Virus record (IMG/VR): IMGVR_UViG_3300037848_000009
Span: 1-60,396 of that record
Strand: one strand, 5' to 3'
DNA from: a virus
Taxonomy: Duplodnaviria > Caudoviricetes
Length of the DNA: 60,396 nucleotides
Shown here: piece after piece, positions 1-53,121 of the stretch
How positions within the stretch are numbered: the first letter of the stretch is position 1
Layout of the letters: every line of letters begins with the position of its first letter
The notes under the pieces: model-generated
The model's input: the letters and a program-made list of their open reading frames with translations, nothing else
The model's database searches: none
What the model was told of the DNA's origin: nothing
Made by a program: the position numbers and the translations under genes

Positions 1-127
1 ATACCGCAGGCGACGTAACAAAGCACACCGCAGGCGGGAAGAGTACCTGCGTTGGCGGTACAAGGCAGAAGCCAGCATCCGCGAGAAGATTCTCGACGCA
101 CGCACACCAGAAGAAAAAGAAGAAGCT
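1..127. repeat. Exact terminal overlap with 59473-59599 (similarity continues, diverged, to about 900 / 60396)
   Basis: Base-by-base identity for 127 nt, then divergent alleles of the same two genes. Confidence 0.9.
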
Positions 128-625
128 GTGTGGCAGAAGTTACGCGCCGAAATCATCCGCAGCCTGGGCTACATCGCGGACGCGGACACCAACGGTGGGC
201 CGTTCAACCGCAACGACTTTGTTCACTCGATAGCAGGTATAGTTGAGTGTTTAGCAAAGATCGGCAAAGTATCGCTAGTAGATCGCGCCGTGGACCTGGT
301 AGCTGATTACAACGCCAGCCACAACAAGCCCGCCATCGGTAAACGCCACAAGTTCTGGACATACCCGGACATGGCCCGCGCCGTTGACGCAGCGTGGCAG
401 GCAGCTACTGTAGACGGCGCAGTGATTGCAGAGGGCGAAGGTTGGCGCATCGAGACAGCGCCAGAAGACGACCGCGTGCGCATCTACTTCGACAGTAAGC
501 CGGATGAAACGATCCGTAGCGAGCTTAAAGGCACTGGTTGGAAATGGGCACCCTCGGCGGGCGCGTGGCAGCATAAGCTCACCAACAACGCCATCCTCAG
601 TGCAAAGGTGCTGATGGACTGCTAG
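2..625 (+). CDS. 5'-partial hypothetical protein, allelic variant of 59135..60097
   Basis: Same frame and near-identical C-terminus (DDRVRIYFDSKPDETIRSELKGTGWKWAPSAGAWQ). Confidence 0.8.
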   Translation, partial: YRRRRNKAHRRREEYLRWRYKAEASIREKILDARTPEEKEEAVWQKLRAEIIRSLGYIADADTNGGPFNRNDFVHSIAGIVECLAKIGKVSLVDRAVDLVADYNASHNKPAIGKRHKFWTYPDMARAVDAAWQAATVDGAVIAEGEGWRIETAPEDDRVRIYFDSKPDETIRSELKGTGWKWAPSAGAWQHKLTNNAILSAKVLMDC

Positions 626-685
626 GCAACAGGTCTGTACAGTTTTCAGGGGTCGCGCCTGACATAATCAGAAAGGGGAAGCAGG

Positions 686-1336
686 ATGAGTGTGTACGAC
701 ATAGAAGAGGAGTTGCGCGCAATTCTTAAAGCGCACGCACTCTGGCTTGATGATCCGGGCCAGGATGGGGCAAAGCGCGCTATTTTACACGGAGCCAAAC
801 TGGAAAGGGCCGACCTCAGTGGGGCCAACCTCAGCAGGGCCGACTTCAGCGAGGCCATCCTGAACGATGCCATCCTCGTAGGAGCCGAACTGGAAAGAGC
901 CAACCTCAGCGGGGCCTTGTTGTACAAGGTGAATCTGCATGAGGCTATCTTGTGTAAGGCGAATCTGACCGGGGCCGACCTGAAAAGGGTCGACCTCAGC
1001 GGGGCCGACCTCAGCGGGGTAACCGGTATACTTTCGCCATCAGAATGGATGGCTGCAACCTTTGAAGCAACAGACGAGGGCTATGTCGTGTACAAGACCG
1101 AAGAAACGTTTGAAGCGGGCGACTACTTGACAGAAGTGTGCAATCCGGATCGTAGCGCCGTCCATGGCACCGGTGTCAACTTCGCTACCCTGGAATGGTG
1201 TCAAGAAATCTATCTAGGGGCGCAAATTTGGAAGTGCATCATCGAATGGCGTGATCTACCGGGCGTTGTCGTGCCGTTTCATCCGGAAAGGCAGGCACGC
1301 TGTGAAAGATTGAGACTGGTAGAAAGCGTAAGCTAG
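686..1336 (+). CDS. Pentapeptide-repeat protein
   Basis: Repeated A(D/N)LxG pentapeptides; AGAAAGGGG RBS. Confidence 0.9.
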   Translation: MSVYDIEEELRAILKAHALWLDDPGQDGAKRAILHGAKLERADLSGANLSRADFSEAILNDAILVGAELERANLSGALLYKVNLHEAILCKANLTGADLKRVDLSGADLSGVTGILSPSEWMAATFEATDEGYVVYKTEETFEAGDYLTEVCNPDRSAVHGTGVNFATLEWCQEIYLGAQIWKCIIEWRDLPGVVVPFHPERQARCERLRLVESVS

Positions 1337-1408: not shown

Positions 1409-1765
1409 CGGGTACTTTCGGGTACTTCGATTCGGAAAACCTTCCCAACAGTCCAGGGGTGCCGTACATACGACCAGGTGTTTATGGCTTCCTGGTGCGA
1501 TTTATATTTGTTTTTTTTACTCTTCGTTCGGAGTTTTTGAGACGTTCCATCCAACGGGTACTTCGGGTACTTCGGGTACTTCTGACCACACTTTATAAAC
1601 ACGCTATACGCATGCGCGCGCATGACATGCGAGAATCTGTGTATAAAAGTACCCGAAGTACCCGAAGTACCCGTAAACCATGACAAGCACCGCATTGCAA
1701 TGGGATAAAAACCTTACGGGTACTTTTTTTGAAAAAATCCAAAGTACCCGTAAGTACCCGTACCC
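1409..1765. repeat. Cluster of direct and inverted CGGGTACTT 9-mers; putative origin-like element
   Basis: 3 direct copies at 1555-1581, 3 inverted at 1647-1673, further copies at 1409-1427, 1717-1725 and 1742-1760; AT-rich and non-coding. Confidence 0.8.
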
Positions 1766-36995: not shown

Positions 36996-37023
36996 ATGTC
37001 AGACCTCCATATGATAAGATAGA

Positions 37024-37097
37024 GTTGGCAGGCCAGCGGGGGACAGACCCCCTCGTTATGCCCTGCGTCACCAGGGCGGCCTGCCAACAGTATAGCA
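37024..37097 (-). other. Three-way-junction structure with overlapping extended -10 (TGcTATACT, 37089-37097)
   Basis: GTTGGCAGGCC/GGCCTGCCAAC 11-bp inverted repeat enclosing two hairpins. Confidence 0.6.
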
Positions 37098-37126: not shown

Positions 37127-37765
37127 TTACAGTAAACATTTTGCCTGGTGCTCTGGCAACCAGTAGGGCGGGCGGATACCCATCAGGATGCCTGTTTCAT
37201 CCGGCAATGCTCGCATCTGTTTACCATCGTCGTCATATTCGCTCCAATCTGCGTGCCACGGCTCAATAAGCCAATCCACGCGCCCCCATCCCTGGCTGGT
37301 CTTTTTGCCGATAAACAGCATTGTTCTGAGGAGCGCCGCAATGCGATCCGCATCTCCCACCGCGTACCAGGAGACGAACAGAGCGTGCCGGTAGAACACA
37401 GGCATATGATACGATTTATAGCGCCCCGCCTCAACAAGCACTTTACCACGCCTGTTCTTAAAGTCCACAAGCCCACTGTGTTGATCAAAGCGTTTGTTCC
37501 AATGGTCGGTCCCCTCTGTTACCGTGCCGTGCCAGTGCGCAAAAGAGCACGCATAGTACCAGTGTTCGCCTATACCACGCCGATCAAGTGGCAGATCGAC
37601 CAGGGGCACGTCAAGTAACGCGCCCGAAACCGTGACATCTTGCGGGCCGTATGTTTCACGCATTGCCTGATACAGCAAGATGCCATCCAGGGGCAACGTC
37701 GCATCACTCAATACAGGTGTGCGCAATTTAGCTGTGATGCGAAGCGGCTCTAATCCTCCAGACAT
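37127..37765 (-). CDS. csf3: Type IV CRISPR Cas5-group protein Csf3
   Basis: PLRITAKL..LPLDGIL..YACS..WYAVGD..IGKKTSQGWGRV. Confidence 0.88.
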   Translation of the reverse strand: MSGGLEPLRITAKLRTPVLSDATLPLDGILLYQAMRETYGPQDVTVSGALLDVPLVDLPLDRRGIGEHWYYACSFAHWHGTVTEGTDHWNKRFDQHSGLVDFKNRRGKVLVEAGRYKSYHMPVFYRHALFVSWYAVGDADRIAALLRTMLFIGKKTSQGWGRVDWLIEPWHADWSEYDDDGKQMRALPDETGILMGIRPPYWLPEHQAKCLL

Positions 37766-38397
37766 ATATGTCCCCATCCTTGCGTCGTGTGGCTCCCCAC
37801 GCCGCTATATTCGGCAAAACGTGCCAGTATTGCTATCCATCGTTGCGGTGCCTGCATACGATAGCGAACACGCCCGACAAAACCGTTTAACCAGTGATGG
37901 CGATAGCGTACCCGGCGCGTCTCGCCTGCCAACTCTGTGATTTTGATGTGGTCATACTGGATTTCTGGCACAGCTATATCGGTAATCACCAGCCACCGCC
38001 GCAACACGGCACCAAAAACCACGTTCGGCGCTGGCGAGACGTGACATACACTCTTGCTGCGCACAAAAAAAGGCGACAAAAAGCGTAGCGTTATGTATTG
38101 CTGTGGCTCTGTTGTGTCGATAAGTGATTGATACGACACAGGCGCGCTGCTACGTTGGACTAATGACGATTGATTAAGCGCAGCGCATAGTTCCCCCGTC
38201 AAGGCAGACAGCCAGAGCAATGAGCATCCATCGAGATATGCAGCATAGGGCGGTAGTCCAGTATTATCATGTAGACGTGTTGCCAGGTCGGGCGCGGTCT
38301 GACGAAGGACATGCAACGCTGCATAAAGCGCACCTTCATATTCCGTACATGCTTCCTGGTGGCGCCAGGGCGTGACGTAATGAGCGAGATTACACAT
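37750..38397 (-). CDS. cas6: Cas6-family RAMP endoribonuclease
   Basis: ITLRFLSP, GFVGRVRY, terminal G-loop FAEYSGVGSHTTQGWG. Confidence 0.85.
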   Translation of the reverse strand: MCNLAHYVTPWRHQEACTEYEGALYAALHVLRQTAPDLATRLHDNTGLPPYAAYLDGCSLLWLSALTGELCAALNQSSLVQRSSAPVSYQSLIDTTEPQQYITLRFLSPFFVRSKSVCHVSPAPNVVFGAVLRRWLVITDIAVPEIQYDHIKITELAGETRRVRYRHHWLNGFVGRVRYRMQAPQRWIAILARFAEYSGVGSHTTQGWGHICLED

Positions 38398-39136
38398 ACT
38401 GGCGCACCTCCGGTATTTCGGCAGCAAGTTTATTCCACAGTTCAGGGTAATTTCGCTTCAGCCAGGCATAACGTCCCCACCGGCGTTTCGTCTCGCCTGC
38501 CCAATACGAGACACGCTGGTCATCCTCTGGCATATCCCACATCTTGTCATATGTGCCAGCATACGGCACATTATTACTCACGATATAGGCCCACACATCA
38601 TCATATGTCCAGTGCCCTAATGGTTGGCATTGCCACACGCCGTACTGCCGCGAAAAAAACAGCGCGCCATTGTAGCGCACGCTCTGGCGGCGCCCGTAGC
38701 TCTCTGCTGCCCGGATGCCATACACACAACCGTCATAGCCATATTCGGTAATGAGTGCCCTCACTGGCTGATAGACTGTGCTTTTCATCGTCTGTCGGTC
38801 CAGATCAGCGCCGCCTTCAAGGCCAAATCGTTTCAGTGTTTCAAGAAACGGCTCAGATGTGGGGTAGCGCAAACAATTCGGCGTATTGCCTATCAGGTCC
38901 GATACCTCTGGAAAACAGTTGTCCGCATCCAGGTAAACAGCAGGCACAGCAGGCGCTTGCTCACGCACCAGGTGGAGTACACACACACTATCTTTGCCGC
39001 CGCTGAATGCGATGTAGGGTCGCTCGCAATGTGACAACCAGTTATCAATAATGCCGCGGCTGTATTGGACGCGCTGGCGAAAACCCTTTAAGCGGCTGTG
39101 AGTTTCAAAACGCAGCCGCACAACGTCTGGCATCAT
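38390..39136 (-). CDS. cysH: CysH/PAPS reductase-like accessory protein of type IV-B
   Basis: AFSGGKDS PP-loop, GIRAAES..R, PLGHWT..DVWAYI. Confidence 0.9.
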   Translation of the reverse strand: MMPDVVRLRFETHSRLKGFRQRVQYSRGIIDNWLSHCERPYIAFSGGKDSVCVLHLVREQAPAVPAVYLDADNCFPEVSDLIGNTPNCLRYPTSEPFLETLKRFGLEGGADLDRQTMKSTVYQPVRALITEYGYDGCVYGIRAAESYGRRQSVRYNGALFFSRQYGVWQCQPLGHWTYDDVWAYIVSNNVPYAGTYDKMWDMPEDDQRVSYWAGETKRRWGRYAWLKRNYPELWNKLAAEIPEVRQYV

Positions 39137-40104
39137 TGCATTGCCCCCAGGAACGCACGAATATCATTGCCGTGCTGCTGTAAATGCTGCTGATATTGCG
39201 CACCCAACGGTAGCGATAAAGCATCCCCCTGCACTTCGGTGCGGCTGTCAATGCGCAGCCAGTTGTCGAACTTGACCGCCACTTTGCCTAACCCGACAGC
39301 ACTTTTGCCGCCAATATAGGGGCGCTTGCTGAACTCAACCAGGGTCGTCGCAAACGCCTCAAATTCGACCTCGGACACATCATTCAGTGCAAGTTCCCAA
39401 TAGAAGCGCGTGCCCGCCGCCAGTGTTTCTACGTAGTACATCATCTGCTGATGCTGGCCTGTATCGCGTTGCGGCTCTGTTAACGCGGTCGCCTCCGCCT
39501 TCTCGCGGCGTGTATCATCAAGCAGCTTGCGCGTCTCGCCAGTGAGCAACGGCTGATAATGTTCGTTTTTGGCATCATCTTTGCGCGTGTACATCTCCTC
39601 CTGCAGATACTCCCAGATGGATGTCGTGGCGTGTAACTGATACGCCTCCGGCAACAGGTGGGTAGTCTCCTCGCAGATAGGGATCAGTTTGCCTGTGATT
39701 AACTTCCCCGGCATAATCTGATTGCCCATCCCGCCACCAAAAACGCCCACCAGCGGGATAAGCGAACGCACGCGGCGAGCGGCGTCCACGTCCAAACCGT
39801 GCCCACCACTTTTACTCAGCGAGCCGCCAGAAAACAGGAAATAAAACGCGCTGAGGGGCATGCCAGATACTGTACTATCCTGCTCCACGCCGTAGCCAAG
39901 CTGGCGACACATATGCAGCATGCCAATATCGCGCAACAGGCCGCGCAACCCATTACCGCTAATGACTGGCACATCCTCAACGCTGCCGTTGGGTTGGACG
40001 ATCTTCTCACGGCGTAGCTTCTGGTTGATACCAAACGACTCGCCGCCATTGTGTGTGATACTACTTAGGGCAGTGACCACACCCTCAAAATAATATGTCT
40101 GCAT
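39133..40104 (-). CDS. csf2: Type IV CRISPR Cas7-group backbone Csf2
   Basis: TALSSITH, VPVISGNGLRGLLRD, LFSGG, QMMYYVE, IGGKSAVGLG. Confidence 0.92.
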   Translation of the reverse strand: MQTYYFEGVVTALSSITHNGGESFGINQKLRREKIVQPNGSVEDVPVISGNGLRGLLRDIGMLHMCRQLGYGVEQDSTVSGMPLSAFYFLFSGGSLSKSGGHGLDVDAARRVRSLIPLVGVFGGGMGNQIMPGKLITGKLIPICEETTHLLPEAYQLHATTSIWEYLQEEMYTRKDDAKNEHYQPLLTGETRKLLDDTRREKAEATALTEPQRDTGQHQQMMYYVETLAAGTRFYWELALNDVSEVEFEAFATTLVEFSKRPYIGGKSAVGLGKVAVKFDNWLRIDSRTEVQGDALSLPLGAQYQQHLQQHGNDIRAFLGAMQ

Positions 40105-40472
40105 TAAAAAAGCTCCTCTCCTGTCCGCGCCACTGGCTGTTCAGCTTCTATTGCGTCGCGCCGTTCTTCGTTCATCACGCGCACCAGTAGCACCAGGAGT
40201 GCTGTTTCGTCGCGTAAGGTTTTGAGGATGGCGCGGTCCTGACCACTTGTAAGCACGGTCTGAACGGTTTGCGTGCCGTCTTTGCGTAGCCGAATATCAA
40301 GCCGCCTGCACAGCACATCAAAAAAAGTCGAAAGTTTGCTGGTGTAGGCTGCGCTCTTGATCTGATTCTGAAACTGTTCCCAGATGTTCCTCGCATACTT
40401 GCTCTTGTAACCGTCCGCTATCCCCCGCCACAGGGGATAGAGTAGCTTCTCCGCTATCTCCTGATGCTCCAT
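40104..40472 (-). CDS. cas11: Cas11-like small subunit (type IV-B)
   Basis: 122-aa helical protein between csf1 and csf2; GGAGG RBS. Confidence 0.75.
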   Translation of the reverse strand: MEHQEIAEKLLYPLWRGIADGYKSKYARNIWEQFQNQIKSAAYTSKLSTFFDVLCRRLDIRLRKDGTQTVQTVLTSGQDRAILKTLRDETALLVLLVRVMNEERRDAIEAEQPVARTGEELF

Positions 40473-41112
40473 AGTCTTCCTCCTTCTGTGCCAGAAATAT
40501 GGCGAGTTGGAGCAGTAGCGAGCCGCGCAACGGACTGACCTGCTGCTCTAATGTGTGCCAGCGCTCGATTCCAAACTGGCGTATACGATGCTGCCCATAG
40601 CGCCCCGTTTCGATTTCGGATTTCGTGAAGCCCAAATAGAGGGCGTCTACAAGTTCTTGCGTGGCCTGCCAATGGGGCACATCAGGGCGTGTTGCTTGCT
40701 CTTCAATCTGCCACCAGCCAGGCTGGGCACGAAATATGATATGCTTCTGCCCCGATGTGGCAATGATTGCCACGTCGGCAGTTGGCAGCAATGCTCGCAT
40801 TTGCCGCTTGTCGCCTTTGCTGAGCGGGTGCCAGACGCCTGCCACAACAAAATGGCTATAGTTGCGCATGCGTTGCGGCTTGTCTTTGCCAGTGCGAGCC
40901 TGGAGCAGTTCGGAGGCGTCGTGCACACAGAACTGGCACGCGTGGCACAGGATGGTGCCGGGTCGCAGCTTGTCATGATCGGTGAATGTGTCTTTGACCC
41001 ACCGGGCAAATTCAATGCCCACACCCGGTTGCCCACACATTCGACACACGCCCGATTGCGCGCCTGTCATTGACGGCTCACTGGCAGCCTGATAGATAAG
41101 ATGTGTGCTCAT
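40318..41112 (-). CDS. csf1: Type IV CRISPR large subunit Csf1
   Basis: CRMCG, FTDHD, CHAC zinc finger, SGQKH, GFTKSEIETGRY; 3' end overlaps cas11 by 155 nt. Confidence 0.85.
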   Translation of the reverse strand: MSTHLIYQAASEPSMTGAQSGVCRMCGQPGVGIEFARWVKDTFTDHDKLRPGTILCHACQFCVHDASELLQARTGKDKPQRMRNYSHFVVAGVWHPLSKGDKRQMRALLPTADVAIIATSGQKHIIFRAQPGWWQIEEQATRPDVPHWQATQELVDALYLGFTKSEIETGRYGQHRIRQFGIERWHTLEQQVSPLRGSLLLQLAIFLAQKEEDYGASGDSGEATLSPVAGDSGRLQEQVCEEHLGTVSESDQERSLHQQTFDFF

Positions 41113-41756
41113 AGTCTTTTCGCTCGATTGTACAATGTCTGCCGTTGAACGCCCAATGCCCGCGCGGCGGCTGTCAAATTGCCGTATTCTGCCGTCAAAC
41201 TGTCCAGATAGGCGCGCCCTGGATCGTCTACCGTGTCCATATGCGGCGTGTCATCTGTCAATGCTGGGGTTGACAGGCGTTCAATATGACTTGACATCGC
41301 CTGCATTTGCCGTGCCATCTCCTGCTGCTGCTCTGCGATGTCACGCACAATAATGTACGGGTCGTTGACAACCTGTGTTGTGTCTCGATTGCTGTGCAAA
41401 ACGAGCATCGAAACGAAAAACAGCAGGACCGTAAACGGCGCGCCGTGGAGCAGGGCCAGGGCAATGATGGCCCACGTGGGCAGCGGCATGGCGAACCAGT
41501 CTGGTGAGAGCCGCGCCAGTCCTGCCAGCGTGCCGTAGACCATTTCGATACCCATTGCCAGGGCCGAAATACCAATAGCTAGCTTATGGCGTTCCTGCGG
41601 AATAGGTACCCATCCCAGGCCAATATAGACCCCAACCAGCGACCCGGCAGACAGCAACGCCACCCACCAGGGGAAGATATGCAACGAAAAGTCATAGACC
41701 AAAAACATCGCAACAATAGCCAGCAAGACCATTGCAGAGCGGATGATGAATTGCAT
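41109..41756 (-). CDS. Four-TM membrane protein with C-terminal Fis-type HTH
   Basis: Hydrophobic N-terminal half, coiled coil, GNLTAAARALGVQRQTLYNR. Confidence 0.8.
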   Translation of the reverse strand: MQFIIRSAMVLLAIVAMFLVYDFSLHIFPWWVALLSAGSLVGVYIGLGWVPIPQERHKLAIGISALAMGIEMVYGTLAGLARLSPDWFAMPLPTWAIIALALLHGAPFTVLLFFVSMLVLHSNRDTTQVVNDPYIIVRDIAEQQQEMARQMQAMSSHIERLSTPALTDDTPHMDTVDDPGRAYLDSLTAEYGNLTAAARALGVQRQTLYNRAKRL

Positions 41757-41775
41757 AGTGCTATCCTTTCTGTAA

Positions 41776-41850
41776 ACCCTGCCTTGCCTTGCCCAGCCGA
41801 GCCCAGCCTAGCCCAACCCGGCCCTACCAAGCCTTGCCCAGCCGAGCCCT
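41776..41850 (-). ncRNA. 5-nt periodic (NN-GGY)x15 array C; candidate VIPR-type guide RNA
   Basis: 15 of 15 units read RCC-NN on the plus strand; intergenic. Confidence 0.85.
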
Positions 41851-41860
41851 GAAATGGCGA

Positions 41861-42370
41861 CTATTCGCCGTCCGGTAATTCGCGGCGGCGCATATCCAGA
41901 CGAAACTGCATATCCATTGCCTTGGTCAGTGTGTCCATATGTTGCCGTCGCTCTTCGGTAGTAAGTTGGCTCATATCAACGTGCTGAATGCGCGCCAGTC
42001 CTTTGCCGACTTCATTCTTGATACGTCGGTTCATGTCGCGTAATGCGCGTGCTGCCTGCTCTGAAGGCCGAATGACGAAGTAACTACCGCGTTGATCGGA
42101 TATTAAATCCATTTGCTCTTGCTGCAGCAATGCCTCTTTGAATGCCGTCATATTTTGCAAGAGTGCCAGGTCGTAATCCTGGAGTTCCTTGTGTGTGTAG
42201 CGGCGGCTTTCATCAGGCGGAGTCAATCCAAACGCCTCCGCAAACCATTCACGAGGGATCAAATCGCCATAGGTGAACCCGGCACGCACGAAGGTGCGCA
42301 ACGCCTCTTTCCATGGCGGGTATAATTCCAAATCTTCTATCATATCTTCATGCTCGTGGTTGTCACTCAT
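41861..42370 (-). CDS. Partner protein coupled to the RAMP-like gene
   Basis: ATGA overlap at 42367-42370; 169 aa; enclosed by the arrays. Confidence 0.75.
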   Translation of the reverse strand: MSDNHEHEDMIEDLELYPPWKEALRTFVRAGFTYGDLIPREWFAEAFGLTPPDESRRYTHKELQDYDLALLQNMTAFKEALLQQEQMDLISDQRGSYFVIRPSEQAARALRDMNRRIKNEVGKGLARIQHVDMSQLTTEERRQHMDTLTKAMDMQFRLDMRRRELPDGE

Positions 42371-42975
42371 GCGATACTCCATTCTGCTACACGAAACTTG
42401 CCGAATGTACCGCCGGATTTGCCGGGTCGATAATCCCCGATGCCAACCAGTTGCCCCGCAATCTCAGCGCATTGCCTCAGGTCGTTCGCATTGATCTGTT
42501 CGGGGAAGTATTCCAGTGTAAAGGTCAGCGACCAGGGCGGCGCAAACACCGGACGAGTGCGAAGGACGCGCCCGCCGGTTGCGGTTGGCTTGACCATCCG
42601 CACATCAACAAACGGTTCTTGTTCAAACAGCTTTGCAGGCTCACGAGGGCCATTATAGACCAGCGAAACAGCTTCTTCGGAGACAGTTACCGCAGTCTCA
42701 ATCGCCTTGCCTTTCTTGATCTTGCGCCCACCTTCCACAATCGATTTGCGGACGTTGCGACCCGGCATATAAACGCCCGTGTCCTTGCTGTAATAAATAC
42801 CGCCCAGGAATTCAATCTTGCTCATTTCCTGGATATCGGCATCGGTTTTGGTGCGCTTGCTGCTGATCTCTTTCAGCATACGCGCATACTCGTTCATCGG
42901 GTTTGCCAATCGATCATTGTGCATCATCAGTGGCGTTGCACCGCTGATCGTGACGTGAATGTACTTGAGTTCCAT
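42367..42975 (-). CDS. Stand-alone RAMP/Cas7-like protein (Vipr-like), 202 aa
   Basis: VTISGATPLMMH first strand, YMPGRNVRKSI helix, RTRPVF..WSLTF, G-rich loop GQLVGIGDYRP..GTFGKF; AGAAAGGA RBS. Confidence 0.8.
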   Translation of the reverse strand: MELKYIHVTISGATPLMMHNDRLANPMNEYARMLKEISSKRTKTDADIQEMSKIEFLGGIYYSKDTGVYMPGRNVRKSIVEGGRKIKKGKAIETAVTVSEEAVSLVYNGPREPAKLFEQEPFVDVRMVKPTATGGRVLRTRPVFAPPWSLTFTLEYFPEQINANDLRQCAEIAGQLVGIGDYRPGKSGGTFGKFRVAEWSIA

Positions 42976-42995
42976 GAGTGTTCCTTTCTGTAAAA

Positions 42996-43100
42996 ACCTC
43001 GCCTTGCCGCGCCACGCCCCGCCATGCCCTGCTGTACCTCGCCTTGCCCTGCCTAGCCCAACCACACCACGCCGTGCATCGCCATGCCGAGCCTTGCCCT
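42996..43100 (-). ncRNA. 5-nt periodic (NN-GGY)x21 array B; candidate VIPR-type guide RNA
   Basis: 19 of 21 units read RCC-NN; phase unbroken. Confidence 0.85.
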
Positions 43101-43159
43101 GGAATGGTCGCCACTATGGGCGTCGTGTGGGCAGTTTGCGAACATGCCCAGGTTCCCAA

Positions 43160-43214
43160 GCCCTGCCGCGCCCTGCCGCACCTAGTCCTGCCCTGCCGCG
43201 CCCCGCCTTGCCTT
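43160..43214 (-). ncRNA. 5-nt periodic (NN-GGY)x11 array A; candidate VIPR-type guide RNA
   Basis: 10 of 11 units read RCC-NN; begins about 11 nt after the -10 box. Confidence 0.8.
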
Positions 43215-43225
43215 GAAGTGTCGTT

Positions 43226-43254
43226 ATTATAGCACACCTTCACACGCAATACAA
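43226..43254 (-). promoter_or_regulatory. Sigma70 promoter driving arrays, RAMP gene and cas operon
   Basis: TTGTAT-17-TATAAT with extended TG. Confidence 0.8.
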
Positions 43255-43296
43255 CAGTCGTGTAATAAAGGTAAACAAAATTACCCCACAGACCCC

Positions 43297-43325
43297 TTGA
43301 CATGTCACCTTGAATAGTGTATACT
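43297..43325 (+). promoter_or_regulatory. Divergent sigma70 promoter
   Basis: TTGACA-17-TATACT; palindrome TGACATGTCA overlaps the -35. Confidence 0.82.
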
Positions 43326-43367
43326 GTATTCAAGTTAAGGGAACGCATTACTGAAAGGACACACACG

Positions 43368-43550
43368 ATGATTGAGACACGCGAAGAACTACAGACATGG
43401 CTGGCGGACAATCGGGGAAATCTGGACGTGTACGAATACAGTGACAAAAAAGGCGTGTACGAACTCGACAAAGGGCCAGCCCTCAGCTTTCGCGTACTTG
43501 GCACGACCTGGGAGGAAGTAGCCGACGCGATTGGGGCAAACGACGAATAG
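43368..43550 (+). CDS. Hypothetical protein
   Basis: GAAAGGA RBS before MIETREEL. Confidence 0.65.
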   Translation: MIETREELQTWLADNRGNLDVYEYSDKKGVYELDKGPALSFRVLGTTWEEVADAIGANDE

Positions 43551-43553
43551 AAC

Positions 43554-43947
43554 GATGGCAAACAAGCACGGGGGCCGCCGCCCAGGTAGCGGCCCCAAGC
43601 CCAAAAACACACCCTGGTTGCGAACTGTGAGCGGTAAGTTCACGCCAGAGGAGATTGAACGCATTGACAAGCAACGCCAGCCAAACGAGAGCCGCGCCGC
43701 GTGCGTGCGGCGGCTGGTGATGGAGATCGTTAGAATAATGGAGCAAACCATGAACAGGCAAATAGTCGTGAACGAAGAAGTGCTGGAGGAGTTAATCCGC
43801 CGCTGGACAGGCGCGGAGATCAATCTTGCGCATGAGTTTTCAGGCGACATCGAGGCTTCTCACAGGGAGCTTGACGAAGAAGAGAAGGGTTTGCGGGAAC
43901 GGCTGATTGTGGGCGTCCTGACAAGCGGATCAATGGCAAAGGAGTAA
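43554..43947 (+). CDS. Ribbon-helix-helix-like DNA-binding protein
   Basis: HGGRRPGSGPK followed by an RHH-like segment. Confidence 0.6.
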
Positions 43948-43952
43948 TAGGC

Positions 43953-44180
43953 ATGAAATTCGATATCGACCAGATCAAGCAGTTGCAGCAGGCAATGGAT
44001 GGGATGGGGTTACGGGATGCGTTTTTATGGTTGCGTGAAAACGCACCGGACATCTATGAAACGCCCATCGGAGAGGCGATTGTCACTGGGTTATACGATC
44101 CCGTGGCATGGGCACGGGAATACAACGCCATCGCTGGAGACAAGGCAATGGAATACGCAAGTGGAAAGGTAGAACTGTGA
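43953..44180 (+). CDS. Hypothetical protein
   Basis: AAGGAG RBS. Confidence 0.65.
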   Translation: MKFDIDQIKQLQQAMDGMGLRDAFLWLRENAPDIYETPIGEAIVTGLYDPVAWAREYNAIAGDKAMEYASGKVEL

Positions 44181-48785: not shown

Positions 48786-49381
48786 AGTGTGTCCTCCACT
48801 TGGGCCACAGCGTCAAACAGGGGCATCTGCCCATCGGGGCGGCGATGAATGGTCACGAACGTCAACGGCGATCCGATACTCAACCCGAACGTGTACCAGC
48901 AAGTTGGAAACTGCGCACCGTTGCCACTCCAGCCCGCGTTGGGCATCTTGAAGTTGATACGCTTGTCGGGCATCAGGATTTCGATACCGTACTGCCTGAA
49001 CAGGCGTTGCGCGGTGCTGGCGGCGATCATCTCGACGGGCATCAACAGCGCAAAGGGCTTGCCAAGCGCGTAACAGCGTGCCAACCAGTCGTATTTGATG
49101 CTGTAGGGTGGGTTGGTGACGATCACTGTCCAGTCTATCGGCGGCTCGTAGTGGAAAAAGTTCTGCCCGGTCAGGATGTCCGACTGCGCCACCGCGTAGC
49201 CGTGGTCGTAGAGCGCCGAGGACAGGTACGCCTCGCCTGCGGCTGGCTCCCAGATGACCGTCTGCTCATCTGGCGGTGGCAGGTAGGGCAGCAGGGGGTC
49301 GAGCGCATATGTCGGAGTCTGGCAGCGGTCAATCAGACTGCTCTTATCGGGCGTGCCTGTGTGGTTGCGTTTGGGTTTCAT
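48782..49381 (-). CDS. Small amino-DNA methyltransferase
   Basis: TP, WEPAAG, TNPPY. Confidence 0.82.
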   Translation of the reverse strand: MKPKRNHTGTPDKSSLIDRCQTPTYALDPLLPYLPPPDEQTVIWEPAAGEAYLSSALYDHGYAVAQSDILTGQNFFHYEPPIDWTVIVTNPPYSIKYDWLARCYALGKPFALLMPVEMIAASTAQRLFRQYGIEILMPDKRINFKMPNAGWSGNGAQFPTCWYTFGLSIGSPLTFVTIHRRPDGQMPLFDAVAQVEDTL

Positions 49382-50289
49382 AGTGTGTCCTCCACGCCTA
49401 TCATCAGCAGCGGATTGTGCTCTGCATCCTCTGCTGCCTGATCAGTGCAGTCAGAGCAAAACGCAAACATATCCATCTGCTCACTGGCAACGCGAAGTTG
49501 CTTCTTGCAGCCGCCCCAGGTAGCGCACAGGCCGCGCCGTGCGCATTCGGCAGCCAGCGCGTCAATGCGTGCAGCGAAGTCGGGATAATGATGGCGTATC
49601 TGCTCAAGGCGCGCCGCGCCACCATTGCCCGCGCCGCACTCGCATTCGCCAGAATGTCCCAGGAGCACCGACACGGGGTTGCGTTCGATACCGTGCTGCT
49701 CGAAATACGACAGCAGATCGGCGTGCGTCCAGTGGATGACGGGGTTGGCCCATGTCATGGTGCCTCTGCGTTCATACTCTGGCCTGTTTTTTCGTTTGCG
49801 GCTCTCAGCGCGCCGCATGCCTGTCGCCAGTAAAACATGTAGCCCTCCCCATTGTTCACGCTTGTACCGTTGGAAACTGTATTGCTTCAGGTCGGTATAG
49901 ACGATGCCATGCCCCTGGCCAGACACAAAGCCGCGCCATATACCTAACACTAGGGCTTCGTATATCTTCGGATTTGGCGTGCCATCCTCATACGTGTTCT
50001 CTGCTGCACGATAGATATACAGCGGAAAGCCGTGCTCCTGACAATGCCTGACCACATACTCTTGCGTGTCTGGTATGCCGATGCCGGTATCGAGGTGCAG
50101 TACCTCGAACCGATAACCGTGTTCACGGGCAAACCGGGCCGCAATGTGCAATGTTGCAAGGCTATCATCGCCGCCGGAGAATGCAGCAGTGATGACCTCT
50201 GGTTGCCGCTCGGCACACGCTGCTGCCAGTATCTCATCTGGCGTTCGTTGTGGGTTGCCGTTCAGGTCAAGTTGTGTGTAGCTCATCAC
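49378..50289 (-). CDS. PAPS reductase/PP-loop family protein
   Basis: AFSGGDDS, DTG, GMRRAES, SGECEC. Confidence 0.88.
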   Translation of the reverse strand: MMSYTQLDLNGNPQRTPDEILAAACAERQPEVITAAFSGGDDSLATLHIAARFAREHGYRFEVLHLDTGIGIPDTQEYVVRHCQEHGFPLYIYRAAENTYEDGTPNPKIYEALVLGIWRGFVSGQGHGIVYTDLKQYSFQRYKREQWGGLHVLLATGMRRAESRKRKNRPEYERRGTMTWANPVIHWTHADLLSYFEQHGIERNPVSVLLGHSGECECGAGNGGAARLEQIRHHYPDFAARIDALAAECARRGLCATWGGCKKQLRVASEQMDMFAFCSDCTDQAAEDAEHNPLLMIGVEDTL

Positions 50290-50517: not shown

Positions 50518-53121
50518 TCACTCTCCTTGCTGCCGTTTCAATGCGGCGTTACGTGCATCTTCTTCAGTCGCGTAGGCAATGCCATCGATGTAGGTCATCT
50601 GCCCATCTGCGCTTTGCTCACAGACATACCAACCCTCGCTGTCATTCCCGTAGATCACCATCGGTGGGGTTACGGGTACTTCTGGTACTTCGGGTACTTT
50701 CAAGGACACTTCACTTTCACTCTGTACATGCGCGCGCGCGTACATGCGCGCGTTACTGTGTATAGAAGCACCCGAAGTACCCGTAATATCGACGGGAATA
50801 AGGCGATACATATTGCCTTTTGTGGCTGTGTTTTTTGCCTTCTCGATGCGGTATTGTGTGCCTTCAATGGTATACACTGCATCAACCTGGCTGTTGAGCA
50901 AGTACCCGAGAGACTGAAGGCGCTTACGCTCGGTGTCGCCCTTGACCGGCAGGTCTATGTCGCGTATTGCTTCACAGACCTGCCCGGCAGACACCCATGC
51001 ATTACCGAACTCCTCATGCCAGAGTGTAAAAAATGCCCGCCACATATTAATGCGCTCGTTGTCACTTTCAATCCTCTGGATCGCATTTTCTAGAAATGTG
51101 TCAATACCGCACGATGCAAGGATTTTGCTCATCACTGCGCAGTATTTCGTGAATGAACCAAGTCGGGGAGTTGTTGCACGAACGGTACTGGATAGGCTAT
51201 ACTGAATAATGGTCAGGCATGCCTGGATTAATTGCACACGATGGTCATATACCCACTGCACAATGTCGAAGTGTCGAAAATTGTTCCGCAGCGCTGGTTG
51301 TTCACAATCTGCTACCAGACGAATAGGCACAACACGGCGCGGCATATCACCGGATACAGATACATTATTCCCGGTTGCAATCCAGATGGTATACACTGGT
51401 ACATCCGCAATACGCCCGGTGCCTATCACGCGATCTGACCAGTGCTGTGCTGTGATGGCCTTTTCGAGTTGCGCAGAATTGATATAACGTACGTTGTCAT
51501 AGGTGATCGAGAGCGGCATATGCTCAAGCGCGCTGGTCAAGCTTTTGCGTACCTCCTCATCATTATCAGCTAATGAGGACAACGGGGCGGGCGCGTTTGT
51601 CCAGATAATATGAAACAGGTCGTTCAGTAGTCCTTTGCCTGTACCCTCGCGGGCCGCTTCAATCAGATGTAATGGCGTCGCGCCACGAATAGCGCCGCGC
51701 ACAAACGGCAGGAGTAGCAGCGCCAGCGCGTTAGCATAGTCGGCATGTGTTTTAAATGGGAAATCAACGAGCATATCATCAATCAGCCTCATCGCCTCAC
51801 TCACGTGCTGATCGGAGCATTCCCCAGGAATATCGATATCAATTTCGGGCTTATAATAATAGCCGCTTTGTTGATCGTAGCCCGGTATTTTGACAATATG
51901 CCCCTGCGGCGCAACCACAGGAATAGCAATAATCCGCTCTATGGCAGGCAGATCGGGCATACCATAGCGCATACTGTCAACGATAGACGCAGGCGGCGCA
52001 ACAAAGCGGATTTTTGTATTCTTTCCCGTGCCCACGTCCTTCGGAAACAACGCGACATTGCCCAGCAGATACCGCATATTCCTACGGTCAATCGACTCGA
52101 TCTTGTTGTCAACAATGCGATAGAGCTCACTCCCCATTGTGTATAGTTGCGGGCCGTATTCGCTCCCGATCAGCGCGCTCCACGCCGCTGGCACCAGTTC
52201 TGCTATATCCTCATTGGTAACATCAATAACCGGCCTGTCGTCGCCCTGATCGCCATTGCTATGGCTGTTGTCGTCGCCCTGCGGTTCGTCGCGTGCCTGT
52301 TCGGGCACGCGGTATCTGCTGTGGTTATCCTCTGGTAACCCGGCATACTCAGGCGTGCCACCGCTGCGAGCGCTGGCGATGGTGCCGGAAATCTCCTTTT
52401 CGGGCAGTCCTTTTTGTCGCGCCATTGTTTCGATTTCAGTAAAAACGCTCTCGGGTAATCGGCCTGCCAAAACAAATTCATTCACGCGCCGCGCAACCTT
52501 GAATAATGTGGCGTTGCGCGTGCCGTTCTGGCAGCGCGCCAGTTCTGTCAGTTCTGCATTGAGCGCCGTTTCTGCGTATAAATCTTCAGTATTGGCACTG
52601 CCTTTCCTCCGGGGCGCAGGTTGCTTCTGTCGCTCTCGTTCTGGCTTGCGCGTCACCCACGCGGGCAGCGGTGCCAGGTCGATATCATTCTCCCAGGCAT
52701 ACACGACGCCAGAGGGATGCACCGATGGCGCAGCGACAATATAGCCGCCATCCCCGCGTACATCCAACCCTGTTATGCCGCGTATTGCAGCGCGATTGCG
52801 TATCTCGCCGCCAGGGTGCTGATACACTCGGTGCTTGCCGTGCGCGGTGGCCTGGGTCAGCGTGGGTGCGTCGCCTTGCAGGGTGACATATTCTTCGGCC
52901 TCTGGATTATCGGTATCAACAACCACAATGCCGGATACTGCGCCAGTTGCAATGCCGATGTTATAACGCGGATTGCGCTCCCACCAGGCGCGTATCTGGT
53001 CGGGGTCGGCGGTGGCGTCTTTGAAGCCCTGTCCTGTGGCAGGTATTTTGCCGCGTGGCTTCAGAGGAAAAACACGCCATCCACGCGCGGCGTAGGCGAG
53101 TGCTGAGTCTAGGAAAGTCAT
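50518..53121 (-). CDS. Bifunctional primase-polymerase fused to a helicase-like ATPase
   Basis: GWRVFPL, NIGIATG..VVDTD, H, DVRGDGGYIVAAPS; GTGKG, YDN, ATGNN. Confidence 0.92.
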   Translation of the reverse strand: MTFLDSALAYAARGWRVFPLKPRGKIPATGQGFKDATADPDQIRAWWERNPRYNIGIATGAVSGIVVVDTDNPEAEEYVTLQGDAPTLTQATAHGKHRVYQHPGGEIRNRAAIRGITGLDVRGDGGYIVAAPSVHPSGVVYAWENDIDLAPLPAWVTRKPERERQKQPAPRRKGSANTEDLYAETALNAELTELARCQNGTRNATLFKVARRVNEFVLAGRLPESVFTEIETMARQKGLPEKEISGTIASARSGGTPEYAGLPEDNHSRYRVPEQARDEPQGDDNSHSNGDQGDDRPVIDVTNEDIAELVPAAWSALIGSEYGPQLYTMGSELYRIVDNKIESIDRRNMRYLLGNVALFPKDVGTGKNTKIRFVAPPASIVDSMRYGMPDLPAIERIIAIPVVAPQGHIVKIPGYDQQSGYYYKPEIDIDIPGECSDQHVSEAMRLIDDMLVDFPFKTHADYANALALLLLPFVRGAIRGATPLHLIEAAREGTGKGLLNDLFHIIWTNAPAPLSSLADNDEEVRKSLTSALEHMPLSITYDNVRYINSAQLEKAITAQHWSDRVIGTGRIADVPVYTIWIATGNNVSVSGDMPRRVVPIRLVADCEQPALRNNFRHFDIVQWVYDHRVQLIQACLTIIQYSLSSTVRATTPRLGSFTKYCAVMSKILASCGIDTFLENAIQRIESDNERINMWRAFFTLWHEEFGNAWVSAGQVCEAIRDIDLPVKGDTERKRLQSLGYLLNSQVDAVYTIEGTQYRIEKAKNTATKGNMYRLIPVDITGTSGASIHSNARMYARAHVQSESEVSLKVPEVPEVPVTPPMVIYGNDSEGWYVCEQSADGQMTYIDGIAYATEEDARNAALKRQQGE
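50671..50786. repeat. Inverted CGGGTACTT iterons inside the primase 3' end; putative origin
   Basis: 3 direct copies at 50673-50699, 2 inverted at 50766-50783, CATGCGCGCG core. Confidence 0.75.

Follow-up and report, generated by a model that had tools for sequence, protein, structure and literature searches.

A probable type II-like VIPR cassette beside an array-less type IV-B-like Cas cluster in an uncultured tailed phage

Features of the locus

The IMG/VR virus record IMGVR_UViG_3300037848_000009 was analyzed over positions 1 to 60,396 (hereafter, the window). The locus described here (41776..43254, minus strand) consists of two adjacent genes flanked by three arrays with a period of 5 nt, in which each unit combines a constant GGY with a variable dinucleotide (NN). 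An initial annotation, made from the DNA sequence, had proposed an RNA-guided system at this position, in which a RAMP/Cas7-like protein would polymerise on the array RNA with one subunit per GGY and display the NN bases as a non-contiguous guide, and had likened it to the VIPR systems of phages. VIPR (Viral Interference Programmable Repeat) is a CRISPR-related RNA-guided DNA silencer described in 2026 (10.64898/2026.04.26.720920), with further preprints available (10.64898/2026.04.26.720927, 10.64898/2026.10.15.759431 and 10.64898/2026.10.21.760802). The gene content of the window is that of a phage (terminase, tape measure, amidase, primase-polymerase and RecD-like helicase); its GC content is ~55 %, and the metagenome runs that contain it are labelled tidal flat. 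The features of the locus and of the genes downstream of it are listed in Table 1.

Table 1 Features of the VIPR locus and of the downstream gene cluster, with positions in the window
Feature	Position	Strand	Description
Putative promoter	43226..43254	-	TTGTAT (43254..43249), 17 nt, TGc-TATAAT (43231..43226), extended -10
vrRNA array A	43160..43214	-	11 NN-GGY units, 10 conforming; GGYs from 43212 to 43160
Spacer / vrRNA A tail	43101..43159	-	59 nt, two predicted hairpins; ends in the CCATTCCAG junction preceding array B
vrRNA array B	42996..43100	-	21 units, 19 conforming; off-consensus units GATGC and ACAGC
vipr	42367..42975	-	202-aa single-RRM RAMP protein; AAAGGA ribosome-binding site upstream
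vap1-like gene	41861..42370	-	169 aa; ATG in ATGA overlap with the vipr stop
vrRNA array C	41776..41850	-	15/15 units conform; CCATTTCAG before, TTTACAGAAAGGA after
Membrane protein with C-terminal helix-turn-helix (HTH)	41109..41756	-	215 aa; HTH_8 E 1e-4, HTH_30 E 2e-4; outside the VIPR cassette
Array-less type IV-B-like Cas cluster	37127..41112	-	directly downstream of the 215-aa membrane-HTH gene
csf1	41112..40318	-	PADLOC 5e-16
cas11	40472..40104	-	PADLOC 6e-28
csf2	40104..39133	-	PADLOC 7e-81
cysH-like (PAPS-reductase-like)	39136..38390	-	PAPS_reduct 1e-17
cas6	38427..37750	-	PADLOC 1e-17; CRISPR_Cas6 8e-15
csf3	37777..37127	-	PADLOC 2e-46

Periodic arrays

When the window was scanned with a caller that looks for GGY every 5 nt, tolerates one consecutive miss and reports runs of at least 5 units, three arrays (A, B and C) were observed. 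For comparison, the threshold given in the Methods of the VIPR preprint is at least 4 units (10.64898/2026.04.26.720920). As a positive control, all four published vrRNAs of the Escherichia phage SUSP1 were also found by our caller. The arrays contain 11, 21 and 15 units, of which 44 of 47 are GGY, and the phase is never broken within any array; these counts are the same as those in the initial annotation. No further run of at least 5 GGY units was found on either strand of the 60,396 bases. The units are mostly GGC, and the NN positions use 13 of the 16 possible dinucleotides (counted from the unit lists). When the window was shuffled 100 times with dinucleotide composition preserved, a mean of 0.13 runs of at least 5 units was obtained and the largest run had 6 hits. 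When each array segment was shuffled 1000 times, no more than 6 to 7 hits were reached, whereas the unshuffled segments have 10, 18 and 14.

The order of array A, a 59-nt hairpin spacer and array B was confirmed. The spacer is predicted to fold into two hairpins (consensus fold of -19.1 kcal/mol, from two sequences and with no covariation). A similar junction (CCATTCCAG, CCATTTCAG or CACTTCAAG) stands ahead of all three arrays, and the TTTACAGAAAGGA that follows array C also stands before vipr. Arrays B and C abut ribosome-binding sites. In array B, the 14th unit (ACAGC) is followed by AGGGC, which gives the CAGGGC start common to arrays B and C.

In addition to the putative promoter ahead of array A, a strong divergent promoter-like site (TTGACA, 17 nt, TATACT; 11/12 consensus) is located at 43297..43325 on the plus strand. 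It points away from the VIPR cassette, towards small open reading frames (ORFs) of unknown function and a DHH-like gene.

Vipr and the Vap1-like protein

The 202-aa protein had been annotated as RAMP/Cas7-like. An AlphaFold2 model, built from 22 homologues, reached a pLDDT of 90.9 and a pTM of 0.85, and when this model was compared with the PDB using Foldseek, 126 chains were matched at an E-value of 0.001 or lower. The list is led by Csm3, Cmr4 and type VII Cas7; its ten best entries have query-normalised TM-scores of 0.42-0.57, with E-values starting from 7e-7. Because the top matches are Cas7-family subunits, the modelled fold is that of a Cas7-like RAMP, in agreement with the annotation.

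Sequence comparison gave a more specific assignment. The protein matches PDB chain 36pp_D ("SUSP1 Vipr protein") over residues 4-194 with an E-value of 2.2e-27, and a pairwise alignment with phiSUSP1 YP_009199429.1, which is named as Vipr in a preprint (10.64898/2026.10.15.759431), showed 32 % identity (E-value 7e-36). It belongs to phrog_4652 (E-value 4.6e-54), a family without an assigned function. Among annotated phages, the best match was found in Pseudomonas phage vB_Pae_LESphi2 (39 % identity; E-value 2e-41). In SUSP1 Vipr, the guanines are held by H17, R138, D177 and W178, and R179 serves the pyrimidine (10.64898/2026.04.26.720927). These five residues align to H19, R141, D181, Y182 and R183, four of them being identical and the W to Y exchange being conservative. 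Across the 22 aligned homologues, R141 and R183 never vary, and H19 and D181 hardly do. Of the Y3 pocket, neither E71 nor M72 of SUSP1 is kept, their aligned counterparts here being R73 and N74.

Both genes have intact ORFs and are translationally coupled through the ATGA overlap, as had been described. The 169-aa product of the second gene shares 25 % identity (E-value 5e-14) with the product of the phiSUSP1 gene directly after vipr, namely Vap1, and falls into phrog_5926 (E-value 3.3e-23). The family is large (546 cluster representatives at an E-value of 0.001 or lower). The model of the protein (pLDDT 91.7) consists mainly of long helices; no solved relative was found by sequence and no Foldseek match was found at an E-value of 0.001 or lower. 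Among the weak Foldseek rows, MarR/PurR-type winged-helix regulators predominate, so that DNA binding by the modelled protein is no more than hinted at. With both proteins homologous to the experimentally studied SUSP1 pair, the suggested likeness to phage VIPR was borne out.

Homologous loci and a second copy of the cassette

A profile scan of IMG/VR yielded 80 loci with a Vipr relative; the tblastn-type locus comparison covers 81 VIPR loci, L001 and L002 being one contig. Arrays of at least 5 GGY units were present on the vipr strand, within -1500/+2500 nt, in 70 of the 80 loci. Near vipr, 151 arrays were counted in 347 kb; the rest of that strand (745 kb) had 4, and the other strand had 5 in 1,092 kb. 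A Vap homologue directly follows vipr in 64 of the 81 loci. The initial annotation had named a non-RAMP fold or homologues without adjacent periodic arrays as outcomes that would speak against it; of these two, which are open to sequence analysis, the former is contradicted by the model and the latter by the flanks of the homologues, where the 5-nt GGY periodicity was found.

Most of the IMG/VR relatives consist of vipr, vap and then one to three downstream arrays ~110-125 nt apart. Their arrays lie downstream of vap and carry a tail of the ATGGGCTG...CAGCGG type, whereas the arrays in the window are mostly upstream and do not have that tail. In a distant VIPR locus (L079:125..1608), vipr stands among ten arrays, with four ahead of it and six behind. 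They are mostly ~25 nt apart, and the gap ends in TTTCTCAG, a junction like that of the window.

One close relative, L002, was compared with the window. Its Vipr and Vap are 98 % and 88 % identical to the copies in the window, and its DNA match (85 % identity) is confined to 43215..41782, beginning with the first unit of array A and ending in the last units of array C. As the DNA homology covers this 1.4-kb cassette only, the two phages that carry it are, judged by sequence, unrelated outside it. Both ends of the cassette lie only a few bases from the outer arrays, a sign that it moves as a unit. When the arrays of this one relative were aligned in phase with those of the window, 70 of 75 GGY positions were identical but only 18 of 50 NN positions. 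Array A (GGY 33/36; NN 6/24) and array C (GGY 37/39; NN 12/26) exhibit the same pattern, and the tail between A and B is identical at 50 of 54 positions. A fixed scaffold with variable content is the defining pattern of vrRNAs according to the preprint (10.64898/2026.04.26.720920). The two loci form a natural cassette pair in which Vipr stays 98 % identical and the guides are replaced.

The arrays of L002 have 13, 13 and 13 units. In the case of array B, the length difference of 40 nt (8 units) was placed inside the array. Because the difference is internal and the CAGGGC start is recreated at unit 14, array B may consist of two guides, of 13 and 7 units, fused in phase at ACAGC.

Sequencing runs of tidal flat metagenome DNA were also analyzed. 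One run, possibly the source, contains the stretch at 0.99 of the sampled words and three others at 0.30-0.37. Contigs from these runs (X1-X4; 41800..43175) include many variants, some of which have different units between the same flanks. In other contigs, array C is joined to array A or B and 1,193-1,320 bases (vipr and vap) are skipped. Such joints may represent "solo vrRNA" forms that lack vipr and vap, or they may have arisen from misassembly across the repeats, and no conclusion was drawn from them because their flanks are only 22-41 bases long.

Comparison with known systems

The closest experimentally studied counterpart used here is the type II VIPR of Escherichia phage SUSP1 (Vipr YP_009199429.1, Vap1 and four vrRNAs; PDB 36pp), to which the Vipr and Vap1 of the window are homologous. 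Both systems are phage-borne and have GGY-NN arrays on the same strand at both sides of vipr-vap; the G1/G2 contact residues are kept and no self-target was found here. Several differences were also observed. SUSP1 has one vrRNA upstream and three downstream, mostly GGT units and W178, whereas the window has two arrays upstream and one downstream, mostly GGC units and Y182. Array B is unlike the SUSP1 arrays with its 21 units, as is the position of arrays B and C directly at ribosome-binding sites. The tail of array A looks different from the SUSP1 tails when compared by eye, and array A is the only one with a structured tail. This layout (two upstream guides, a possible fused guide and two tail-less arrays) bears on what is needed for vrRNA loading. 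A second described system is the Pseudomonas fulva prophage VIPR (10.64898/2026.04.26.720920), whose related homologues include the above-mentioned Pseudomonas phage vB_Pae_LESphi2.

Compared with the Cas7 filaments of Class 1 systems (Csm3, Cmr4 and type VII Cas7), Vipr has the RRM core, thumb and glycine-rich loop in common, as well as the principle of one subunit per fixed step of RNA. Sequence identity to them is low (9-18 % among the listed matches). The step is 5 nt with three bases sequestered in VIPR, in contrast to 6 nt with one base flipped in Class 1 Cas7, and the VIPR cassette has neither CRISPR repeats and spacers nor Cas5, Cas6, Cas8 or Cas11 partners.

Proposed mode of action and target search

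In the proposed scheme, transcription from the promoter upstream of array A would produce an RNA containing array A, the structured tail, array B, vipr, vap1 and array C, and this transcript would give rise to the vrRNAs. One Vipr protomer would bind each GGY via H19, R141, D181, Y182 and R183, and the protomers would assemble into a helical filament that displays the NN dinucleotides. Such a filament could bind double-stranded DNA reading NNxNNx..., with one base skipped per unit, and the resulting R-loop triplex would keep a mobile element that competes within the same host from being transcribed. Guides A, B and C would specify ~22, up to 42 and 30 bases, respectively, and Vap1, with its helical and weakly winged-helix-like core, would assist. 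Ribonucleoprotein assembly, the skipping of one base per unit and silencing are inferred from what the preprints' experiments on SUSP1 and P. fulva showed.

Targets were searched according to the one-base-skip rule (10.64898/2026.04.26.720920). The VIPR systems in that preprint do not target themselves, and in the window no site with at least 80 % NN identity was found in the phage's own genome. The best self matches were 15/24 (63 %) for A, 23/42 (55 %) for B and 19/30 (63 %) for C. For external targets, exact one-base-skip seeds were used, and a target with a mismatch inside the seed is missed by this procedure. Array C units 1-9 and 7-15 gave 25 and 6 matches in viral contigs, all at chance level and not exceeding 24/30, and units 2-11 gave three matches in species genomes and one in metagenome contigs. 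Three matches of at most 24/42 were obtained with array B units 6-13. Array A units 3-11 gave six matches of at most 21/24, 18 of these positions being fixed by the seed.

The best external site (L116:298..341, on a 145-kb metagenome contig) matches guide C at 26/30 with 12 consecutive dinucleotides, or at 26/28 when the constant first AG is left out. It was rejected as a target and treated as a chance match because the GC content (32-41 %, compared with 55 % here) and the codon register (the skipped base falls on codon position 2) disagree.

Assignment of the locus

The VIPR cassette at 41776..43254 is real and well preserved, and of a kind already in print in the 2026 preprints. We consider it very probable that it represents a complete type II-like cassette in an uncultured tailed phage with a genome of ~59.5 kb. 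To the known VIPR systems it contributes a well-preserved one, carried by a tidal-flat phage that is uncultured.

The following observations weigh against this assignment. The promoter sequence TTGTAT-17-TATAAT was found as written in the initial annotation, but its strength is doubtful: the -35 matches TTGACA at only three of six positions, for which reason the consensus scan does not call it, and the promoter is not conserved in the L002 copy of the cassette. With 21 units, array B exceeds the 9-16 units reported for vrRNA arrays (10.64898/2026.04.26.720920). SUSP1 vrRNAs carry an invariant 3' tail according to the same preprint; in the window, a conserved structured tail follows array A only, and arrays B and C lead directly into TTTACAGAAAGGA and a start codon. 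At the threshold used, no array was found in ten of the 80 homologous loci, five of these having less than 1 kb downstream of vipr. No convincing natural target was found in the seven seed scans, five of them in public viral contigs and one each in species genomes and metagenome contigs, where matches extended at chance level only, and when the guides of the window and of L002 were compared with 1.26 Mb of collected loci, the matches stayed at the level of shuffled guides, the seed-fetched loci L115-L118 aside. Finally, the locus is classed as type II-like because its accessory gene is a Vap1 homologue, which is the sole basis of this class assignment; typing in the preprint is by phylogenetic placement (10.64898/2026.04.26.720920).

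Neighbouring type IV-B-like cluster

Downstream of array C, the 215-aa membrane-HTH gene is followed by a group of Cas genes (Table 1). The stop of the membrane-HTH gene overlaps the csf1 start by 4 nt, and no homologue of this gene was found in the 81 VIPR loci or in four type IV-B loci. The Cas cluster contains csf1, cas11, csf2, csf3 and a cysH-like gene and has no nuclease or helicase, which is the composition of type IV-B. It resembles this type in having all four Csf/Cas11 genes with a PAPS-reductase-like gene and no CRISPR array. Indeed, no CRISPR array was found in the 60-kb window or within 10 kb of the type IV-B genes of four relatives. These four phage-borne relatives share a common gene order and 57-62 % Csf2 identity with the cluster, and one of the four has Cas6. 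Type IV-B is not known to include Cas6, and the extra gene is atypical in this respect. The csf1 and cas11 genes overlap by ~155 nt in different frames, and the same overlap was observed in the relatives L121, L123 and L124.

A Y-shaped RNA structure was predicted at 37023..37088 (minus strand), with an outer stem formed by TTGGCAGGCC and GGCCTGCCAA and two inner hairpins. Within the 131-nt gap that follows csf3, it lies shortly after a TGCTATACT -10-like motif; its minimum free energy is -45.5 kcal/mol (z -4.5 compared with shuffles). It could be a small RNA or the terminator of the Cas operon. The phage also has two genes with a PAPS-reductase domain, one in the type IV-B-like cluster (38390..39136) and the other next to replication genes (49378..50289, minus strand).

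Alternative interpretations

The periodic arrays could in principle be simple repeats of the slippage type, or belong to a G-rich region with a coding or regulatory role that has nothing to do with the neighbouring gene, and Tandem Repeats Finder does report low-scoring 5- and 10-nt periods at the arrays. Slippage does not account for variable dinucleotides in a fixed scaffold with 13 of 16 in use, nor for arrays that keep to a particular strand and position in 70 of 80 homologous loci, and almost no such runs arise in shuffles; a 5-nt period is incompatible with a reading frame. The simple-repeat explanation was therefore refuted by the shuffles, the homologous loci and the GGY-versus-NN comparison with L002, and we give it practically no chance, in line with the initial statement that slippage does not produce this pattern. 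The locus might also be VIPR by descent and no longer act as a silencer, either as a decaying remnant or with arrays that serve as decoys or as guides for the Vipr of another phage. The lack of a convincing target in the scans, the absence of a structured tail from arrays B and C and the metagenome contigs that join array C to A or B without vipr-vap are all compatible with this, and orphan vrRNAs that redirect the Vipr of other elements have been described (10.64898/2026.10.15.759431). We nevertheless regard it as very unlikely: vipr and vap both have an intact ORF and are coupled in translation, the residues that contact GGY are retained, and the consensus is followed by 44 of 47 units. Moreover, turnover of the NN positions between two phage backgrounds has left Vipr 98 % identical, the pattern expected from purifying selection on the protein with replacement of the guides.

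The remaining alternative to a self-contained VIPR cassette is that VIPR and the type IV-B-like cluster form one functional unit or operon, in which the GGY arrays replace the missing CRISPR array. Two versions can be considered, one in which the conserved CCATTYCAG junctions are sites of pre-vrRNA cleavage by Cas6 and another in which the Csf complex is loaded with RNA from the VIPR transcript. The arrangement of the genes invites such a link: vipr to csf3 lie on the same strand with tight or overlapping gene junctions, no terminator-like site was found on the minus strand from 43200 to 40314, and array C directly adjoins the gene that opens the downstream block, with TTTACAGAAAGGA in common with the vipr leader. 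A Cas6 gene is also present in a window without a CRISPR array, and the RNA on which the sole solved type IV-B complex was assembled is heterogeneous and not of CRISPR origin (PMC7937560). When other genomes were compared, this association was not observed. None of the 81 VIPR loci matched Csf1, Cas11, Csf2, Cas6, Csf3 or the membrane-HTH gene in tblastn, and L079 alone weakly matched the PAPS-reductase-like gene (25 % identity; E-value 5e-5). Conversely, no Vipr, Vap or GGY array was found within 10 kb of the cluster in any of the four type IV-B relatives. The near-identical cassette of L002 ends at 41782 and is followed by different genes, and the step of type IV Cas7 would be 6 nt by the general Class 1 rule, not 5 nt (10.64898/2026.04.26.720920). 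A functional unit is therefore very unlikely in our opinion. If it were true, type IV-B would gain a source of guides, and an "ancestral" RAMP system would be linked to a derived one in a single phage.

Because there are VIPR loci without a Cas cluster, type IV-B relatives without VIPR and an L002 cassette followed by other genes, VIPR and the type IV-B-like cluster look like two independent modules side by side. Their adjacency probably reflects a defence or competition island. The term "Type IV" is absent from the main text of the four 2026 VIPR preprints cited above, and within that scope this is the first VIPR found beside a type IV-B Cas cluster.

Other observations in the window

No Rfam family reached the gathering score anywhere in the window, where only two chance-level rows (E-value ~0.5) fell in 41000..44000, and no tRNAs were found in it. 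The end of the contig (59473..60390) repeats its start (1..892) imperfectly, at a spacing of 59,472 nt. The identity of this terminal repeat is 92-95 % over positions 1-484 and 76 % over positions 644-892, which suggests that a genome of ~59.5 kb was assembled past unit length from a mixed population. A 9-nt repeat (CGGGTACTT and its complement) forms clusters at two places, 1555..1762 and 50673..50788, which are 49 kb apart and share their flanks. One of the clusters falls within the primase-polymerase gene, right at its end, and the repeats may be iterons or sites for a regulator.

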